A stretch of 64,000 bases of DNA from positions 192,001 through 256,000 of the forward strand of contig CAVYKI010000003.1 in assembly GCA_963769025.1 (NCBI GenBank), written 5' to 3'. The notes beneath the pieces are model-generated. The model was not told the origin of the DNA. It searched no databases and saw only the letters and a program-made list of their open reading frames with translations. Shown here one piece after another: positions 16,682-25,259 of the stretch. The DNA comes from an uncultured Verrucomicrobiae bacterium. GTDB taxonomy: Bacteria > Verrucomicrobiota > Verrucomicrobiia > Chthoniobacterales > Chthoniobacteraceae. The position numbers and the translations under genes are program-made. Position 1 is the first letter of the stretch, and the number at the start of each line of letters is the position of its first letter.

Positions 16682-17797
16682 TCACGAACGCACGAACAGC
16701 CAGTAAGCAGTCCCGCTGAGGATGGCCGCGCACGGGAGCGTCAGCAGCCATGAAAGGAGAATGCCCGAAACGACGCGGGGATCGGCCTGCCGCGTCGTGG
16801 CGCCGATGCCGAATAGCGCGCCCACGGAGACGTGGGTCGTCGAGACCGGCATCCCGAACATGCTCGCACCGATCACGAGAATGCCGGTGGCCAGGTTCGC
16901 GGAAAAACCCTGCCCGTGATTCATCGTGGTGATTTTGTGGCTCATGGTCTCCGCGACGCGGCGGGCGCCCAGCACGCCGCCGACAGCGATGGCGAGCGCC
17001 ACCAAAAGCAGGCCCAGCCGGATGTCGAACGCCTGCACGACGAGGAGCAAGGCGGCCATCTTCGGCGTGTCGTTCAGGCCGCGCGCGAAGCTCACGACGC
17101 CCGAGCTGACAAAATGTGCGGCGTCCATCGTCCGCTGGCAGTTCACGCCCAAATACGTGCCGGAGTAGCGCTCCGCGCATTGCTCCTCGCTGTCCATGAC
17201 CAAGGCCAGCCCATCGACGCGCTGCATGGCGAATACCGACGCCGGCTGCGGGATCGGGACGACCCGTTGCTCCGAGCCGATGCAGACGCAGGATTCCTTC
17301 GTGATGCCAAGCCGCAGGCGCACGAAGCGGAGCGCCAGGTAGATCAGCGCGCCGAGCAAGACCGCCAGCACGGGAGCGAGCAGCAACGGCAGAAAAAACT
17401 GCCTGCCGAGAACCGCGAAGCCCACGTGTCCGCCCACCGCAGCCAGACCGCTCCCGACAATGGCCCCAGTGAGGCCATGGGTCGTGGAAATGGGGAACCC
17501 GAAACGGGTGGCGAGGATGACGGTGAAACCGGCACCGAGCGCGACGGCCATGAGGAAAGGTTCCGAGCCCGCGAGCGCATCGGGCACGAGGCCCTTGCCG
17601 GAGAATTTTTTCAGGAGCGCCTGCGCGAGGAAAATGGAGCAAACGGAGCCCGCGAACGTGGTGATGGTGGCCCAGGTGATGGCCGTGCGGTAACCCGTCG
17701 TGCGACTCCCGAACAAGGACGCGACGCCCTTGAAATTATCGTTCGCGCCGTTCGAGAAGGCGAGGAAGGCGACTGCGATGAGGAGGATGATGGTCAT
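16682..17797 (-). CDS. PiT (PHO4) family inorganic anion/phosphate transporter
   Basis: NGANDNFKG, PISTTH, GLNDTPK, PVSTTH; multiple TM helices. Confidence 0.88.
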   Translation of the reverse strand: MTIILLIAVAFLAFSNGANDNFKGVASLFGSRTTGYRTAITWATITTFAGSVCSIFLAQALLKKFSGKGLVPDALAGSEPFLMAVALGAGFTVILATRFGFPISTTHGLTGAIVGSGLAAVGGHVGFAVLGRQFFLPLLLAPVLAVLLGALIYLALRFVRLRLGITKESCVCIGSEQRVVPIPQPASVFAMQRVDGLALVMDSEEQCAERYSGTYLGVNCQRTMDAAHFVSSGVVSFARGLNDTPKMAALLLVVQAFDIRLGLLLVALAIAVGGVLGARRVAETMSHKITTMNHGQGFSANLATGILVIGASMFGMPVSTTHVSVGALFGIGATTRQADPRVVSGILLSWLLTLPCAAILSGTAYWLFVRS

Positions 17798-17900
17798 TGG
17801 GGAGACGCGGCCATTCAGGCTGGCCGAGGCGCTGCTACACGGGACGTGCGGCTGATACACTGGAATCCGAAAGCATGCATGCGACTTCGATTTCTCATGA

Positions 17901-17929: not shown

Positions 17930-17986
17930 ATGGGGGTGCCAGATTCACGCCGCACTCAAAACCACCTGTCACACAAAACTCCACTT

Positions 17987-19222
17987 ATGCTCAAAACCAC
18001 GCTTTCGCTGAGCCTCGCCTTCACCGCCGCCGCATTCGCCGGTCCGGCCCAGGTCACCAAGACCGAGGCCAAGGAAAAATCCGTTTACGATTCCATCTGG
18101 GATTCGCTGACGCTTTACAAAAACAAGGACGGCCTTTTCCTGAATGAATTCCGCATCACTGGCCGCGCGCACTTCGATTCATATTACACGGACTCGAACC
18201 TCGGCTGGGATCAGGACTGGACCGTGCGGCGCCTGCGCATCGGCGGAAAGGCCACGTTCTTCCAGAAGCTCGACATCCACGTGGAGGCCGACCTGGCCCC
18301 GCAGAACCTCGGCGGCGCGCTCTTCGTGGACGACCCGGTTTACCAGAAGCTCACGGATGCCTACGTGTCCTACAAGTTCAGCGATGCGCTGAAGCTGACG
18401 GTCGGCAAGCAGTCCGTGAAGTACACGCTCGATGGCGGCACTTCGTCGAACGAACTCATCACGATCGACCGCAACAACCTGGCGAACAACCTGTGGTTCA
18501 CGACCGAGTACATCAGCGGCGTGAGCGCGAGCGGAAAGCTGGGCAACTGGCAGTACAACACCGGCATCTTCTCCGGCGGCTCGATCTACGCGTCGCAGAG
18601 CGGATTTGCCAACAGCTCGAAGGAGTTCGGCAATTTCAACGGCGGCAACTTCTGGCTCGGCAGCGTCGGCTACGATTTCGCGAAGGCGCTGAACGTGAAG
18701 AAGGCGCTGCTGCGCGCGGACTTCGTCTATAACGACCCGAGCCCGCAGAGCAACGCGACGAAGAACTTCTCGCAAATCGGTTCGCTGACCTTCCAGTACG
18801 ACACCGGGCGCTGGGGCTTCTCGACGGATCTCGCGGCCGGCAACGGCTCGCTCGGGCAGAGCGACATGTGGGGCTTTGTGGCGATGCCGTGGTTTAACAT
18901 CACCGAGAAGCTGCAGGTCGTCGGCCGCTACACCTACATGTCCAGCGACAGCGCGGACGGGATCAGCTTCAACCGCTACGAAAATACGATGGCTGTGAAT
19001 ACGAACGCGAACGGCACATTCCGGACGAACGCGCTCGGCAGGGTGAGCTCGCAGCGCGGCGACGAATACAACGAGCTCTATGTCGGGCTGAACTACTTCC
19101 TCTACGGCCACAAGCTGAAGCTCCAGACCGGCTGGAACTACGCCTGGATGGGCGACAGCGCGAACAACGGCGGCAAGTACGCCGGCTGGACGTGGACGAC
19201 CGGGCTCCGCGTGAGCTGGTAA
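17987..19222 (+). CDS. Phosphate-selective porin (OprO/OprP-like)
   Basis: Signal peptide, VRRLRIG, DAYVSY, VGKQ, GLNYFLYGHKLKLQ, terminal W; first gene of the phoU-pst cluster. Confidence 0.85.
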   Translation: MLKTTLSLSLAFTAAAFAGPAQVTKTEAKEKSVYDSIWDSLTLYKNKDGLFLNEFRITGRAHFDSYYTDSNLGWDQDWTVRRLRIGGKATFFQKLDIHVEADLAPQNLGGALFVDDPVYQKLTDAYVSYKFSDALKLTVGKQSVKYTLDGGTSSNELITIDRNNLANNLWFTTEYISGVSASGKLGNWQYNTGIFSGGSIYASQSGFANSSKEFGNFNGGNFWLGSVGYDFAKALNVKKALLRADFVYNDPSPQSNATKNFSQIGSLTFQYDTGRWGFSTDLAAGNGSLGQSDMWGFVAMPWFNITEKLQVVGRYTYMSSDSADGISFNRYENTMAVNTNANGTFRTNALGRVSSQRGDEYNELYVGLNYFLYGHKLKLQTGWNYAWMGDSANNGGKYAGWTWTTGLRVSW

Positions 19223-19323: not shown

Positions 19324-19363
19324 GTGTCACAAGATTGGCTCCCGACTGCCACACAATCGTAAC
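19324..19363 (+). promoter_or_regulatory. Pho-box-like tandem repeats upstream of phoU
   Basis: GTGTCAC-aaga-TTGGCTC-ccga-CTGCCAC-acaa-TCGTAAC at exact 11-bp period (19324, 19335, 19346, 19357), ending 35 bp before phoU. Confidence 0.55.
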
Positions 19364-19398: not shown

Positions 19399-20496
19399 AT
19401 GCCCTCGCACTACGAAGACTCACTCCAGAACGACATCGATCGGATCCGCAAGAAGGTCTCCGAAATGGCCCGGCTCGCGGAATGCGCGCTCGAAGCATGC
19501 CTGAAGGCGCTCGCCACCTGCGACCGACAAATCGCCTACGCGGTGATCTTGCGCGACCGGCGCATTGACGAGTTGGAGAAGGAGCTGGACCGGCTGTGCC
19601 TGGAGTTTCTCATCCGCCAGCAGCCCGTCGCACGGCATCTGCGGCTCGCATACATCACCATCCGCGTGAACCTCGAGCTCGAGCGCATCGGCGATTACGC
19701 GGAGAGCATTGCACGGCAGACGCTGAAGCTCGCGCGGATGAATGCGCAGATTCCCATCGAGCGTTTCCAGCAGATCGGCAGCCTCAGCATCCCGATGCTG
19801 CGCGACGCGGTGAAGGCGTTCATCGCGGGCGACGAGGCGCTCGCGCGGGATGTCATCACGCGTGAGGACGAGGTGGATGCGCTGCGGAATGTCATCAACA
19901 ACGAGCTGTTCCAACTGCGCGAGGACAACCTGATTCCGCTGGAGGCTCTGACGCCGCTGATGACCATCGCGCGCCGCTTTGAGCGCGTGTCCGACCAGGC
20001 CACGAACATCTGCGAGGAAGTCATCTACATGGTGACGGGCGAATATCCTCGCAAGCTCGGCGGCGACACGTGGCGCATGGTTTTCATCGACGATCGCCAT
20101 CACTGCCGCAGCCAGATGGCCGAGGCCATCGCCACGGCGCTCAACCGTCCGCAATTCGTCTTTGCCAGCGCGGGCCTGACCGCGACGGAGATCGATCCCG
20201 GCACTGTGGAATTCATGCGGAGCAAGGGCGTGGATCTCTCACACGCACAGAGCCGCAGCGTGGCACAGCTCCCGAATCTCGACGCCGCGCAAATCATCGT
20301 CGCGCTCTCGCCCGCGGCGAAAAAGGCATTCCCGAAACCGACCAAGGCCGTGTGCCTCGACTGGAGCCTGCCCGATCCATCGCTCCTCGCCGGAAACGAC
20401 GCGGAAAGGCGCGCGGCCTACGAGTCCGCCTACCAGTTTCTCCGCGAACACATCTCCGAACTCTGCGACGCCGTGCTCAGTGACAGCATCGGCTGA
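19399..20496 (+). CDS. phoU: Phosphate signalling protein PhoU fused to a C-terminal ArsC/LMW-PTP-like domain
   Basis: Two PhoU repeats (ELERIGDYAESIA, RFERVSDQATNICEEVIY), then CRSQMAEA, SAG, DWSLPDP of the LMW-PTP fold. Confidence 0.9.
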   Translation: MPSHYEDSLQNDIDRIRKKVSEMARLAECALEACLKALATCDRQIAYAVILRDRRIDELEKELDRLCLEFLIRQQPVARHLRLAYITIRVNLELERIGDYAESIARQTLKLARMNAQIPIERFQQIGSLSIPMLRDAVKAFIAGDEALARDVITREDEVDALRNVINNELFQLREDNLIPLEALTPLMTIARRFERVSDQATNICEEVIYMVTGEYPRKLGGDTWRMVFIDDRHHCRSQMAEAIATALNRPQFVFASAGLTATEIDPGTVEFMRSKGVDLSHAQSRSVAQLPNLDAAQIIVALSPAAKKAFPKPTKAVCLDWSLPDPSLLAGNDAERRAAYESAYQFLREHISELCDAVLSDSIG

Positions 20497-20519: not shown

Positions 20520-21434
20520 ATGAAACGAACATCCACACTCGCGCTCGCGACCCTCGCGGCGACGGCAATCTTCATCACCGGCTGCAACAAAAAGGGCGCA
20601 ACCGAAGGCGGAAAGTCCGGCACCGTCGCGCTGCAGAACATCGGCTCCGACACCATGGTGAATCTCGCCCAGGCATGGGCCGAGGCATACGCCCAAGTGG
20701 CGCCCGGCGTGTCCGTCGAAGTCTCCGGCGGAGGCAGCGGCATCGGCGTCGCGGCGCTCATCAACGGCACCTGCGACATCGCCAACAGCTCGCGCAGCCT
20801 CGAAAAGGAGGAGGAGGAAAAGGCCACCGCGAAATACGGCGGCAAGCATCCCGTCGAGCACCTCGTCGCCTACGATGCGCTGGCCATCTACGTGCATCCC
20901 AGCAATCCCCTGAACGAGATCTCCGTCGAGCAGCTCAGCGACCTTTTCCGCGACGGCGGCAAGATCAGCAAGTGGAGCGACCTCGGCGTCGCCGCTCCCG
21001 GCGGGCAGGACGAAATCGTGCGCATCAGCCGCCAGAACAACTCGGGCACCTACCATTACTTCCGCGAGGCGGTGCTCGGGAAAAAATCCGACTTCCGCCC
21101 CGGCTCGCGCGACATGTCCGGCTCGAAGGATGTCGTGGAACTCGTCGGCAACACGCCCGGTGCGATCGGCTACAGCGGCATCGGCTACCGGACGGACAAG
21201 GTGAAAGTCCTCAAAGTCTCGAAGAAGACCGGCGAGGCTGCGGTCGAACCAAGCATCAAGACCGCGCTCGACAAGAGCTACCCGATCGCCCGCCCGATGT
21301 TCATGTATGCGCCTCCGGGAGCGAAGCCCCAGGTGGACGCCTACCTGAAGTGGATCACCTCCGCGCCGGGCCAGGCGATCGTGATTGATAAGGGCTACAT
21401 CCCGCTCCCAGAGTTCGCGCCGAAAGACAAATAG
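20520..21434 (+). CDS. pstS: Phosphate ABC transporter substrate-binding lipoprotein
   Basis: Lipobox ITGC, GSDTM, GGGSGIG, DIANSSR, RQNNSGTY, YPIARP. Confidence 0.95.
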   Translation: MKRTSTLALATLAATAIFITGCNKKGATEGGKSGTVALQNIGSDTMVNLAQAWAEAYAQVAPGVSVEVSGGGSGIGVAALINGTCDIANSSRSLEKEEEEKATAKYGGKHPVEHLVAYDALAIYVHPSNPLNEISVEQLSDLFRDGGKISKWSDLGVAAPGGQDEIVRISRQNNSGTYHYFREAVLGKKSDFRPGSRDMSGSKDVVELVGNTPGAIGYSGIGYRTDKVKVLKVSKKTGEAAVEPSIKTALDKSYPIARPMFMYAPPGAKPQVDAYLKWITSAPGQAIVIDKGYIPLPEFAPKDK

Positions 21435-21451
21435 CAACCCCGATTTGAATC

Positions 21452-21491
21452 AAGGACGGGCGGTGACTTGCCAGCACCGCCCGCCTTTTTT
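21452..21491 (+). terminator. Intrinsic terminator / stabilising hairpin between pstS and pstC
   Basis: GGGCGGTG-acttgccag-CACCGCCC stem followed by GCC and TTTTTT. Confidence 0.75.
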
Positions 21492-21509
21492 CGTTCAGCG
21501 AAAGCCCTG

Positions 21510-22806
21510 ATGCACGCCCAGATCCAGACACCGCCCAAGCAGGCCGCCACGGTCGCCGTTCACACGGCGCTCGTGCTCCTCTGCGCCGCGGTCACGGTCG
21601 CGCTCGGGTGGTTCGCCGCCGGCGGCGCGCAGGCCCGCGCTGCGAACGGCTCATGGCTCGCCGAGGGCTGGCTGGGGCTGGGCGCATTTGCCGGATTCCT
21701 CGCGAGCGCCTTCATCGCGCGACGCGGACGGGTCGTGGAATGGGCCGGCATCCTCGCCTGGCTGGCTGTGCTCGCGGCATTCCCGCTCGTCCATGCGCTG
21801 TCCGGCCGATCGTTCCTGCCGTACTGCGGGCTCACCTTCGTCTTTCTCTTTGCCGCGCTGCATCTCGGCGGCTTCCTCGCGTCGGAGATCGGGGGCTTTG
21901 CGCACGACGGCTTCATCGAGCGCCCCATCCGCATCGCGGGCATCAGCGCGATCGTCTTCGTCTTCGGCATCTTCTTCTTCGTCTTCCGCGAAGGCGGCCC
22001 GATCCTCTGGGAAAAGGGGACGAACTTCAGCCTCTCGCAGTTCCTCAGCAGCCCCGATTGGTTTCCCACGTCATTGGGAAACAAACGCTACGGCGTGCTG
22101 CTGCTGATCATCGGCACGCTGAGCGTGACCGTCCTCGCGATCCTCATCGCCGTTCCGTTCGCGCTCGGCGGGGCGATTTTCCTCTCCGAGTTCTGCACGG
22201 GAAAGCTGCGCGAGTGGATGAAGATCATCATCGAACTGCTGGCCGCCATTCCCGAGCATCGTCTGGGGCTTCATCGGCATCACGGTGATCAATCCGCTGA
22301 TCATCAAACTGTTCGGCGTCTCCATCGGCCTGAACGTCCTGAACGCCGCATTCATCCTCGCCCTCATGGCCATGCCCATCATGGTCAGCATCGGCGAAGA
22401 CGCGCTCAAGGCCGTCCCGGACAGCTACCGCGAGGCCGCGACCGCGCTCGGCGCCACGCGCTGGCAGATGATTTACCGCGTGCTCCTGCCCGCGGGAAAA
22501 AACGGCCTGCTCGCCGCAGTCCTCCTCGGCGTCGGACGCGCGGTGGGCGAGACGATGGCCGTGCTCATGGCCACCGGGCATTCGATCAACAACCCGTTCA
22601 TCAAGGACGGCTCGTTCAATTCCGCGTGGATGTTTGAAAGCTGCCGGACACTCACCGCCACCATCGCCGCGGAACTTGGCGAAGCCAGCGAGCACAGCCC
22701 GCACTACCGGGTCCTCTTCATGATCGGCATCCTGCTGCTCGGCACCACCTTCGTCATCAATCTCGTCGCCGACCTCGTCGTGAAAGGCGTCCGCAAACAG
22801 AAATGA
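21510..22806 (+). CDS. pstC: Phosphate ABC transporter permease PstC with extra N-terminal TM region; one frameshift near 22252
   Basis: IELLAAIP / SIVWGFIG across the shift, EDALKAVPDSYREAATALGATRWQ, GRAVGETMAV. Confidence 0.9.
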
Positions 22807-23720
22807 GCACGCCCGCCGCCACCACGATCCGCGAACCGTTCACCGTCACCGACCACGTGCGGCGCAAGATGAAGCACGAGAAGATCGCCCGCGCCATCTT
22901 CGCGACCATGGTCGTGCTGATGCTGGTGCCGCTCTTCGCGATCCTCTACCACGTCATCTCGAAGGGCGCGCCGCTGATCGACTGGGATTTCCTGACCACC
23001 AATCCCCGGAAGGGCATGACGCAGGGCGGCATCTGGAGCGCACTCCTCGGCACGATCTGGCTCGTCATCGTGTCACTCGCGATCAGCGCCCCGCTCGGCG
23101 TGCTCGCCGCCGTGTACCTGAACGAATACGCGAAGGACAACTGGCTCACCCGCGTGGTGAACCTCGCCGTGGTGAACCTCGCCGGCGTCCCCAGCATCGT
23201 CCACGCACTCTTCGGCCTCGGCGCGTTCGTGCTCTTCTTTGAAATGGGCCGCTCCGTGCTTGCCGCCTCGCTCACGCTGGCGGTGATGACCATGCCCGTC
23301 GTCATCACCTCCACCCGCGAGGCGCTCGGCGCGGTGCCGCTGAGCTTCCGCGAGGCGTGCTGGAACGTCGGGGCCACCAACTGGCAGACCATCCGCAGCA
23401 TCGTCCTGCCCAATTCGATCAGCGGCATCCTGACGGGCGTCATCCTCGAAATCAGCCGCAAGGCCGGCGAGACCGTGCCCATCATGTTCACCGGTGCCGT
23501 CTTTTTCCGGAACATCGCCGAGGGCGACTTCTTCGCCTACAGCGTGAACGACCAGTGCATGGCCCTCTCCATGCACCTCTACACCGTCACCACGCAGGTC
23601 AACGGCGCGCCGCCCGCGCTGCCCTTCGCCGTGGCGACCGTGCTCATCGTCTCCATCATCCTGATCAACACGACCGCCATCTCGGTCCGCGCGTGGCTGC
23701 GCTCCCGCAAGAAATGGTAA
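22803..23720 (+). CDS. pstA: Phosphate ABC transporter permease PstA
   Basis: AAVYLNEYA, NLAGVPSIV, REALGAVP, AGETVP; ATGA overlap with pstC. Confidence 0.93.
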   Translation: MSTPAATTIREPFTVTDHVRRKMKHEKIARAIFATMVVLMLVPLFAILYHVISKGAPLIDWDFLTTNPRKGMTQGGIWSALLGTIWLVIVSLAISAPLGVLAAVYLNEYAKDNWLTRVVNLAVVNLAGVPSIVHALFGLGAFVLFFEMGRSVLAASLTLAVMTMPVVITSTREALGAVPLSFREACWNVGATNWQTIRSIVLPNSISGILTGVILEISRKAGETVPIMFTGAVFFRNIAEGDFFAYSVNDQCMALSMHLYTVTTQVNGAPPALPFAVATVLIVSIILINTTAISVRAWLRSRKKW

Positions 23721-23725
23721 CCTCG

Positions 23726-24490
23726 ATGTCCGACACCTTGAAAAAGATCGAAGTCGAGAATCTCCGGCTCAGCTATGGGGCAAAGGAGGTCATCCACGGC
23801 ATCTCGTTTCACATCGAGCCGAACGAAATCCTCGGCGTCATCGGCCCCGCGCAAAGCGGCAAGACCTCGCTGCTGCGGTGCATCAACCGGACGATCGAAT
23901 TCACCGCCGGCGCAAAGCCGAGCGGCGTCATCCGCGTGGACGGGACGGACGTGATGGACATGAGGAACGTGTACGAGCTGCGCCGTCGCGTCGGCATGGT
24001 CGCGCCGCTGCCGGTCGGCCTGCCGCTGAGCATCTACGACAACGTCGCCTTCGCCCCGCGCGCCGCCGGCATGAGGCGGAAGAGCGAGCTCGATGTGCTC
24101 GTGGAAAAATGCCTCACGCAGGCCGCGCTGTGGGACGAGGTGAAGGATCGGCTCGACTCGCTCGGCACGAAACTGAGCGGCGGCCAGCAGCAGCGACTCA
24201 CCATCGCGCGCGCGCTTTCGCACAGCCCGGAGATTCTGTGCCTCGACGAGTTCAGCATCGCCATCGACCCCGTGACCACGATGCGGATCGAGGACGTGCT
24301 CAAGGAGCTGAAGAAGGACATGACCATCATCCTCGTGACGAACCTCGTGCAGCAGGCCCGCCGCCTCGCTGCGCGCACGATGTTCCTGTGGAATGGCGAA
24401 ATCATCGAGCTCGGCCCGACCGAGCAGCTCTTCGGCGACAGCCCGAAGGACAAACGCACGTATGACTACGTGAACGGGATTTTCGGATGA
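23726..24490 (+). CDS. pstB: Phosphate ABC transporter ATP-binding protein, paralogue 1 (degenerate Walker A, Q-loop and H-switch)
   Basis: GPAQSGKTS, LSIYDNVAF, AALWDEVKDRL, LSGGQQQRL, CLDEFS, VTNL; alternative start at 23714. Confidence 0.88.
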   Translation: MSDTLKKIEVENLRLSYGAKEVIHGISFHIEPNEILGVIGPAQSGKTSLLRCINRTIEFTAGAKPSGVIRVDGTDVMDMRNVYELRRRVGMVAPLPVGLPLSIYDNVAFAPRAAGMRRKSELDVLVEKCLTQAALWDEVKDRLDSLGTKLSGGQQQRLTIARALSHSPEILCLDEFSIAIDPVTTMRIEDVLKELKKDMTIILVTNLVQQARRLAARTMFLWNGEIIELGPTEQLFGDSPKDKRTYDYVNGIFG

Positions 24491-25259
24491 ACGACCCGCA
24501 GCACAGCATCACCACCCGCGACGTGAAGCTCTGGTATGGAAAATTCCAGGCGCTCAAGGGCATCAACGTGGACATCAAGCACGGCAAGATCACCTCGCTC
24601 ATCGGCCCGAGCGGCTGCGGAAAGACGACGCTGCTGCGCTGCTTCAACCGCGTGAACGAGCGCTACGGCAACGTGACCACGACCGGCGAAATCAAGCTGC
24701 TCGGCAAAAACATCTACGACGCCGACGTCTCGCTCATCGAGCTGCGCAAGTCCGTCGGCATGGTCTTCCAGCGGCCGAATCCGCTGCCGCTTTCCATTTA
24801 CGAGAACGTCGTCTTCGGCCTGCGCATCCACGCGGATTCGAAGCCAAGCCGCAGCGATCTCGACGATGCCGTGGAAAAGGCGCTCACGGAAACCGGGCTC
24901 TGGGCGGACCTGAAGGATCGCCTGCACGACCGCGCCATCGGCCTCCAGCTCGAGCAGCAGCAGAAGCTCTGCATCGCACGCCTGCTTCCGCTGAAGCCGC
25001 GAGATCATCCTCATGGACGAGCCGTGCTCGGCGCTCGACGTGGACGGCACGCGCGCCATCGAGGAGCTGATGTGGAGCCTCGCGGGCCGCTACACGATCG
25101 TCATCGTCACGCACAACATGGCGCAGGCCCGCCGCGCGAGCAACGAGATGCATCTTCATGCTCATGGGCGAACTCATCGAGCACTCGCGCACCGAGGATC
25201 TTTTCCTGACCCCGCGGGACAGCAGGACAGCCGAGTACATCGAAGGCCGCTACGGATAG
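24487..25259 (+). CDS. pstB: Phosphate ABC transporter ATP-binding protein, paralogue 2 (degenerate signature); frameshifts near 25000 and 25148
   Basis: [47 protein letters not shown]; ends [14 protein letters not shown] at 25257-25259. Confidence 0.88.

Follow-up and report, generated by a model that had tools for sequence, protein, structure and literature searches.

An arsenate reductase-like domain without its redox cysteines, fused to PhoU at the head of a pst cassette in an uncultured Verrucomicrobiae bacterium

Bacterial phosphate homeostasis has long faced the question of how PhoU receives its signal, and a locus of an uncultured Verrucomicrobiae bacterium poses it through a domain of known ancestry, which offers a handle on the problem. 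The stretch analyzed here, referred to as the window, comprises 64,000 nucleotides of contig CAVYKI010000003.1 (GenBank assembly GCA_963769025.1, positions 192,001 to 256,000 of the forward strand), and all coordinates given are positions in it. One of its genes encodes a PhoU protein joined to a C-terminal domain that resembles a thioredoxin-coupled arsenate reductase (ArsC) lacking its redox cysteines. What does such a domain do at the end of a phosphate regulator? A first-pass annotation, made from the sequence alone, had proposed that a catalytically dead domain was co-opted as a built-in oxyanion sensor tuning the control of Pst and PhoR. That interpretation is partly supported by our analysis. 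The C-terminal domain is descended from a thioredoxin-type arsenate reductase and is now neither an arsenate reductase nor a decaying remnant; the trait under selection is the aspartate at the nucleophile site, beyond the mere loss of cysteine. In the subfamily to which this protein belongs, we tentatively favor a role for the domain as a noncatalytic input module that would bind an anionic or phosphorylated ligand. The gene and its parts are located as follows.

19399..20496, plus strand: PhoU/pseudo-ArsC fusion gene, an ATG-started open reading frame of 365 amino acids
19399..20046, plus strand: PhoU part, residues 1 to 216, a six-helix bundle matched by TIGR02135 and by structure 1t72
20068..20493, plus strand: domain with the fold of ArsC and of protein tyrosine phosphatases of low molecular weight (LMW-PTPs), residues 224 to 365, lacking all three redox cysteines
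20089..20112, plus strand: altered P-loop D231-D-R-H-H-C-R-S238, whose ArsC counterpart is C-T-G-N-S-C-R-S
20374..20379, plus strand: Asp326-Pro327, equivalent of the ArsC general-acid Asp105-Pro

The N-terminal half is a PhoU protein by its score, its six-helix fold, an E/D-x3-D motif in each repeat, and its linkage to pstSCAB, features that it shares with the canonical two-repeat PhoU proteins of E. coli, A. aeolicus (1t72), and P. aeruginosa (4q25). Pfam recognizes both repeats (PF01895, 128.9 bits), and NCBIfam assigns residues 9 to 215 to TIGR02135 (phoU_full) with 166.2 bits against a cut-off of 130.25. The two motifs read E95-R-I-G-D99 and E195-R-V-S-D199; E95, R96, D99, and R196 are invariant in alignment A1, and D199 is at least 90% conserved. 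Identity to E. coli PhoU is 30% over 224 residues. Unlike canonical PhoU, the fusion carries an extra domain of 140 residues, and its gene stands first in the operon instead of last. AlphaFold2, run with a 99-sequence alignment, produced a confident two-domain model of the fusion (mean predicted local distance difference test score [pLDDT] of 94.5; predicted template modeling score [pTM] of 0.69), and Foldseek matched each half to its expected fold: for the N-terminal half the match was 1t72, the PhoU of A. aeolicus (template modeling [TM] score of 0.95 on the target, root mean square deviation of 1.8), and for the C-terminal half the ArsC structures 8p6m (TM score of 0.87) and 1jl3 (0.88).

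The C-terminal half adopts the LMW-PTP fold, as indicated by a PF01451 (LMWPc) match above the gathering threshold (33.9 bits, cut-off of 23.2, residues 229 to 331) and by Foldseek matches to LMW-PTPs as well as to ArsC. TIGR02691 (arsC_pI258_fam) matches residues 230 to 353 with 53.8 bits (E value of 2.2e-14), short of the equivalog cut-off of 174.3, and a phmmer search of the PDB with residues 222 to 365 returned the ArsC proteins of Synechocystis (2l17, 5.5e-10) and B. subtilis (1jl3, 2.7e-9). The likeness to ArsC that the first-pass annotation had seen by eye is thus borne out, and its account of the motifs was literally correct, with FID-DRHH-CRS, VALS, and AFP standing in place of those of ArsC. 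In the phmmer alignments, Asp231 corresponds to Cys10, Cys236 to Cys15, Arg237 to Arg16, Ser238 to Ser17, Ser304 to Cys82, Ala310 to Cys89, and Asp326-Pro327 to Asp105-Pro; the codons were read off the window DNA. The nucleophilic Cys10 of the C-x5-R motif and the Cys82/Cys89 relay are therefore missing, and the P-loop Arg16-Ser17 and the general acid Asp105 are present (as Arg237, Ser238, and Asp326), in agreement with the claim that the Arg-Ser and DP motifs had been retained. By the same token, the loop D-x5-R-S departs from the LMW-PTP signature C-x5-R-(S/T) at the catalytic cysteine. Because Cys10, Cys82, and Cys89 are all replaced, the domain is unable to run thiol-relay arsenate reduction, and the description of it as catalytically dead holds in that sense.

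Set beside the thioredoxin-coupled ArsC proteins of S. aureus (pI258), B. subtilis (1jl3), Synechocystis (2l17), and D. indicus (8p6m), the domain has the same fold and a P-loop of the same position and length followed by Arg-Ser; it also shares the Asp-Pro turn of the general acid and the SQMAE sequence that starts a helix. It is unlike them in having Asp for Cys10, Ser for Cys82, Ala for Cys89, Arg for Gly12, and, in this copy, His for Asn13, and also in its low equivalog score and in that we found no stand-alone copy of the Asp-form domain. With its catalytic residues gone and the domain under purifying selection, it qualifies as a pseudoenzyme and provides a clean bacterial example of the passage from enzyme to pseudoenzyme with a conserved Cys-to-Asp replacement. 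The Cys-based pseudophosphatases of the STYX type offer an analogy, in that a phosphatase fold outlives its nucleophilic cysteine, presumably for binding; unlike those proteins, which are eukaryotic and occur alone or in phosphatase tandems, the fusion has a conserved Asp and is joined to a bacterial transport regulator. Within the LMW-PTP family itself, members from Drosophila were once classed as pseudophosphatases (PMC7772506). No bacterial pseudophosphatase or ArsC case of this kind was found among the best 10 of 110 literature matches.

Conservation was assessed in a close set of 148 distinct relatives of at least 340 amino acids (151 before duplicates were removed) and in a diverse set of 102 usable representatives, 5 of 107 having been dropped with the P-loop region missing or unalignable. 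In the close set, Asp231 is present in 147 proteins, Asn234 in 146, Cys236 in 143, Arg237 in 124, Ser238 in all 148, Trp322 in 147, Asp326 in 143, and Pro327 in 145, and cysteine is not among the six commonest residues at positions 304 and 310. Since the identity of the domain among these relatives is only about 50 to 65%, the pocket appears to be under tighter constraint than its surroundings in the domain. The ratio of nonsynonymous to synonymous substitution rates (dN/dS) against close relatives is 0.11 to 0.18 for the ArsC-like part and 0.07 to 0.12 for the PhoU part, with medians over 246 unsaturated pairs of 0.283 and 0.249, respectively. On these values the ArsC-like domain is not under relaxed selection; relaxation would have told against a co-opted function.

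At the nucleophile position, the 102 diverse fusions have Asp in 78 cases, Glu in 6, Ser in 7, Cys in 5, Gly in 3, and other residues in 3; the premise that such fusions have lost the catalytic cysteine thus holds for most of them, the full set of catalytic residues being kept in 3. Ala241 (102), Trp322 (98), Phe229 (96), Ala258 (90), and Gly259 (88) are near universal in this set, and Cys236 is kept in 31. Position 232 is Glu or Asp in 110 of the 148 close and 51 of the 102 diverse members. The composition of the loop varies with Arg237: among the 148 relatives, position 233 is His or Arg in 120 of the 124 proteins that have Arg237 and Asp or Glu in 21 of the 24 that lack it, the Arg-less loop type reading D-x-D-N. 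Pocket charge hence appears to switch as a unit.

To see how the two halves might sit together, residues 1 to 216 and 224 to 365 were folded as separate chains with three controls and our own alignment, so that the calibration counts that follow apply only roughly. The docking score was 0.72 (best control, 0.00), a mark that 116 of 157 solved complexes and 2 of 215 mismatched pairs attain; agreement of contacts between docking runs was 73% or higher, and the partner had a pLDDT of at least 87. The predicted interface joins PhoU residues 43 to 54, at the start of helix 2, with residues 316, 318, 320, and 350 to 364, on the beta-4 edge and the last helix. The P-loop residues are absent from the confident contact list, where an unlisted residue is uncertain, not excluded. 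A memorized complex is unlikely to explain the docking result, because sequence and fold searches match PhoU and ArsC only as separate entries. In E. coli PhoU, A147 and R148 are needed for PhoR binding (PMC4423584). By BLASTP these residues align to the turn between helices 4 and 5 (approximately residues 141 to 145 of the fusion), outside the predicted interface; the same alignment ruled out the L-A-R motif at residues 148 to 150 as their counterpart.

What, then, is the domain for? In the reading that we favor, the pocket is used. The P-loop of this protein is net basic, with Arg233, His234, His235, and Arg237 around Asp231, and Ser238 and Asp326 are kept. The ligand could be phosphate, arsenate, or some phosphorylated or acidic group on a partner, and occupancy of the pocket would bias the action of the PhoU bundle on the asymmetric PstB1/PstB2 ATPase pair of the adjoining cassette and, likewise, on a PhoR-like kinase. 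Use of the pocket itself is suggested by the conservation of the full pocket at 95% or more in the close clade together with the tendency of its charge to switch as a unit, and for the basic-pocket subtype the oxyanion-sensor idea seems plausible. Several observations weigh against an input module, however. In ArsC and LMW-PTPs the P-loop Arg is the chief ligand for the oxyanion, and a carboxylate at the base of the anion hole disfavors anion binding. The first-pass expectation that fusions would have lost Cys and retained Arg stands in the close clade (Asp231 in 147 and Arg237 in 124 of 148), but not family-wide: with the P-loop Arg in only 16 of the 102 diverse fusions (and Leu in 42), that combination is limited to the subfamily of this protein. 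Asp326 is kept in only 28 of the 102, and the state of Arg237 changes at least seven times on the tree of the close clade. The coupling of positions 233 and 237 loses the significance suggested by the raw counts when independent pairs are compared (3 to 4 of 6 pairs go the same way and 0 the opposite way; median P value of 0.25). This copy itself has His234 (CAT, 20098 to 20100), shared only by P0106, where 146 of the 148 relatives have Asn; close relatives' contigs read A at 20098, giving the Asn codon that is the equivalent of ArsC Asn13. An exposed pocket is suggested by the docking contact list, in which unnamed residues count as uncertain. Finally, purified canonical PhoU1 with inorganic phosphate is reported, in a 2025 study (PMC12301784), to shift SenX3 towards phosphatase activity in vitro, so that PhoU may need no extra sensor domain. 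The study also partly dates the first-pass statement that the means by which PhoU senses phosphate is unresolved.

A ligand-free scaffold is a serious rival, and the two readings are close. It is possible that the domain is a folded protein-protein module that braces PhoU or docks it to PstB1/PstB2, PhoR, or another partner, with Asp231 plugging the empty P-loop through backbone amides and the helix dipole. Family-wide, the sole polar feature to be kept is an acidic side chain in the nucleophile position (84 of 102), with Arg237, Asp326, and Cys236 mostly lost in diverse members and Arg237 lost several times within the close clade as well; the near-universal Phe229, Ala241, Ala258-Gly259, and Trp322 look like core residues; a defined interface in cis is predicted (0.72 against 0.00 in the best control); and the domain travels with an asymmetric PstB pair. 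A passive scaffold would leave it harder to explain why Asn234, Cys236, Ser238, Gln239, and Asp326-Pro327-Ser328 are at least 95% conserved in the close clade at such modest overall identity and why the charge of the pocket tends to switch together. If the passive scaffold is correct, the point is one of annotation, these proteins being neither plain PhoU nor arsenate reductases or tyrosine phosphatases; some truncated gene calls of the fusion are named as one or the other of the latter two. A divalent-metal site seems unlikely. Here Asp231 and Asp/Glu232, joined by Asp233 in the Arg-less type, would bind Mg2+ or Mn2+ at the end of beta-1, which agrees with the acidic position 232, with the D-x-D-N loop, and with the E/D-x3-D motifs of the PhoU part, through which PhoU proteins bind metals; yet the loop of this protein (D-D-R-H-H-C-R-S) is net basic, and neither the PDB sequence search nor Foldseek gave a family or structure match pointing to such a site. 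We consider Asp-based chemistry very unlikely as well. Asp231 would then act as a nucleophile or phospho-acceptor, forming an acyl-phosphate, in a slow phosphatase or in a covalent phosphate-status mark, with PhoR~P, PhoB~P, or some small phospho-donor as its target. The subfamily retains the nucleophile-position Asp, Arg237, Ser238, and Asp326 as general acid, and the Cys-to-Asp mutant C215D of PTP1B, which has been characterized, reportedly retains weak activity; but Arg237 and Asp326, which catalysis needs, are dispensable across the family, and no natural enzyme of the LMW-PTP fold is known to us to use an Asp nucleophile. The idea of a functionless remnant of a PhoU-ArsC fusion, drifting to loss, is close to refuted. 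The missing catalytic residues, the odd N234H, and the frame breaks in the neighboring pstC and pstB2 would suit it; against it stand the low dN/dS of the domain, a single departure (Asn234 to His, equal to the family median of 1) in the 94 columns that are at least 95% conserved, full-length retention across two phyla, and the possibility that the frame breaks are assembly errors.

A recognizable pocket that includes Asp231, Arg237, and Asp326, together with natural variants of Cys-bearing, basic-pocket, and acidic-pocket type, makes the fusion useful material for the PhoU question. Whatever the pocket does, the domain is tied to PhoU and to Pst, as the first-pass annotation had assumed. Apart from the fusion, no PhoU-domain gene was found in this genome (marker genes put its completeness at 83%), and the only strong PstB and PstS matches in the genome are those of the cassette that the fusion heads; pstS follows it at 41 of the 42 loci with a fusion. 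The order fusion-pstS-pstC-pstA-pstB1-pstB2 is common to Verrucomicrobiota and Myxococcota. In the window, the surrounding features are the following.

16682..17860, minus strand: PiT/PHO4-family phosphate transporter gene, divergent (PF01384, 215.9 bits)
17930..19222, plus strand: gene of the phosphate-selective porin O/P family, upstream of the fusion (PF07396, 58.3 bits)
19325..19363, plus strand: Pho-box-like array of four hexamers, TGTCAC, TGGCTC, TGCCAC, and CGTAAC, at 11-bp spacing
20520..21434, plus strand: pstS, 23 bp downstream of the fusion (PBP_like_2, 149.2 bits; TIGR02136, 231.5 bits, above the cut-off)
21468..22806, plus strand: pstC, in two frames in the assembly, with a break near 22249 to 22262
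22803..23720, plus strand: pstA (BPD_transp_1), syntenic in relatives
23726..24490, plus strand: pstB1 (TIGR00972, 277.8 bits against a cut-off of 343.2)
24487..25259, plus strand: pstB2, in three frames in the assembly, with breaks near 24999 and 25148

A second pstB was seen in 32 of the 42 loci; of the 10 that remain, 9 lie on contigs that end before that point, and L046 lacks pst genes. The two ATPases differ in their motifs: PstB1 keeps the LSGGQ signature with the Q-loop Gln and H-loop His replaced, and PstB2 has a canonical Walker A, Q-loop, Walker B, and H-loop with a degenerate signature (LQLEQ). In the usual head-to-tail dimer of ATP-binding cassette (ABC) transporters, the importer would have one consensus and one crippled ATP site. 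The fusion would then mark a distinct, horizontally moving type of Pst importer. One could go further and suppose that the ArsC-like pocket is a cytoplasmic receptor for phosphate or arsenate whose occupancy, or an acyl-phosphate on Asp231, sets the grip of PhoU on the degenerate PstB1/PstB2 ATP site, so that the importer throttles itself and signals to PhoR by internal oxyanion load, with the basic and acidic subtypes tuned to different ligands; we regard this elaboration as doubtful. About 740 bp lie between pstB and pstB2 in L007 (6760 to 7503) and L011 (10808 to 11551) and at no other locus, which may be an extra gene or an insertion.

Also encoded in the genome are a PhoR-like kinase of nearly full length (297 bits) and a regulator similar to PhoB (252 bits), neither of which reaches its equivalog cut-off. 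The Pho-box-like array lies 36 bp upstream of the fusion start codon, and the alignment shows four hexamers at the same spacing upstream of the fusion in relatives with diverged flanks (L019, L021, and L027). With its TGTCAC-type repeats the array has the layout of a Pho box, so that PhoB-type control of the fusion-headed operon is a reasonable inference; the fusion is the PhoU of a horizontally mobile and probably Pho-regulated pst cassette. At the stringency searched, the array is unique in the genome, so that the search returned only the array itself and no regulon. A promoter scan gave 0 promoter-like sites, and terminator-like sites numbered 9 against 6.7 expected. The porin encoded at 17930 to 19222 is 79 to 81% identical in L003, L004, and L011 and only 30 to 35% identical in the other close relatives, L005 to L010, and this fall in identity indicates that it is not a fixed part of the cassette. 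Elsewhere in the genome, LMWPc genes lie at G000:C3:1088908-1089297 (72 bits) and G000:C9:276097-276309 (57 bits), presumably ordinary ArsC or LMW-PTP genes.

The frame breaks in pstC and pstB2 fall where relatives' contigs are one base shorter, at exactly 22249, 24999, and 25148, and pstB2 needs two frame changes to reach its conserved end. The assembly consists of 13 contigs and is compatible with long-read indel errors. Assembly error is thus at least as likely as real mutation, the breaks being single extra bases without counterpart in relatives. A search for sequencing runs of this strain found none (the best run shared 0.14 of the sampled words), nor was any RNA run listed. In L039, from a Myxococcota metagenome-assembled genome (MAG), pstB2 has one frame change, at a different place.

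How widespread is the architecture, and where did it come from? A domain-scored search for full-length proteins found 287, and both Pfam domains were present in 118 of 120 among the matches listed. An exhaustive search of representatives gave 181 clusters at E values of 1e-30 or less, with 107 of the best 150 at least 335 amino acids long, and 42 full-length fusions occur in species-representative genomes of Chthoniobacterales (Verrucomicrobiota), Myxococcota (mostly Polyangiaceae), and unclassified MAGs. Organisms named for the fusion include a Deltaproteobacteria MAG and a Magnetococcales MAG, and database names for the protein are PhoU, "PhoU-like phosphate uptake regulator," and "phosphate transport system protein." We found no description of a PhoU-ArsC/LMWPc fusion in the literature covered, which leaves out subscription journals; abundant in databases, the architecture is apparently undescribed.

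No genuine stand-alone Asp-type domain was found among close short homologs. The 19 close short hits (identity of at least 51%) begin inside the fusion sequence or at an internal Met and were rejected as truncated gene calls, and P0284, a further candidate, is an N-terminal PhoU fragment. The nearest genuine stand-alone relatives, at 36% identity or less, are canonical ArsC proteins with C-x-x-N-S-x-R-S. Among the fusions, Cys10 is kept in five diverse members (P0158, P0203, P0221, P0205, and P0164). P0158, from the Deltaproteobacteria MAG and named "phosphate signaling complex protein PhoU," has the two-domain architecture and length of the protein studied here, joined to an apparently intact ArsC; unlike the latter protein, P0158, P0203, and P0221 keep Cys10, Arg16, Cys82, and Cys89, and P0205 has kept Cys10, Cys82, and Cys89 and lost Arg16. 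These Cys-bearing fusions may be working reductases attached to PhoU, an arrangement that would couple arsenate detoxification to the phosphate importer. In a quick domain tree (122 rows, 140 columns, 59 of 119 forks unresolved, root not established), four Cys-bearing fusions group with all 19 stand-alone ArsC proteins at 99% support in the SH-like approximate likelihood ratio test (SH-aLRT), the Ser and Gly forms adjoin that group, and the Asp forms fall into two deep groups, one of 28 rows that contains this protein and one of 63. The pattern fits an active PhoU-ArsC fusion as the ancestor of the Asp forms; the Cys-bearing fusions may be ancestral or separately fused.

Within the order, the fusion is rare. 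A PhoU match was present in 148 of 151 genomes sampled and a full fusion in only 6, namely, all 5 of genus g1, including this genome, and the single genome of genus g5; of the other 5 genomes with the fusion, 4 have no PhoU match besides it. The remaining genomes of the order have a plain PhoU of about 230 amino acids that is 27 to 35% identical to the fusion, among the matches listed (49 weaker ones lie beyond). In its PhoU part the fusion is 54 to 63% identical to the Myxococcota fusions, and the cassette proteins of Verrucomicrobiota and Myxococcota share 72 to 81% identity in PstB and 69 to 74% in the C-terminal part of PstC. On these comparisons of sequence, the fusion gene moves horizontally with its pst cassette. 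Five Myxococcota or unclassified genomes were compared for their PhoU content: three also have a plain PhoU, one has the fusion only, and one has a further contig-end fragment. In a Myxococcales MAG, a second, ordinary pstSCAB (L030:5-3429, minus strand) lies a few kilobases from the fusion cassette, with proteins 39 to 45% identical to those of the cassette, and hence the cassette can be an addition and not a replacement.

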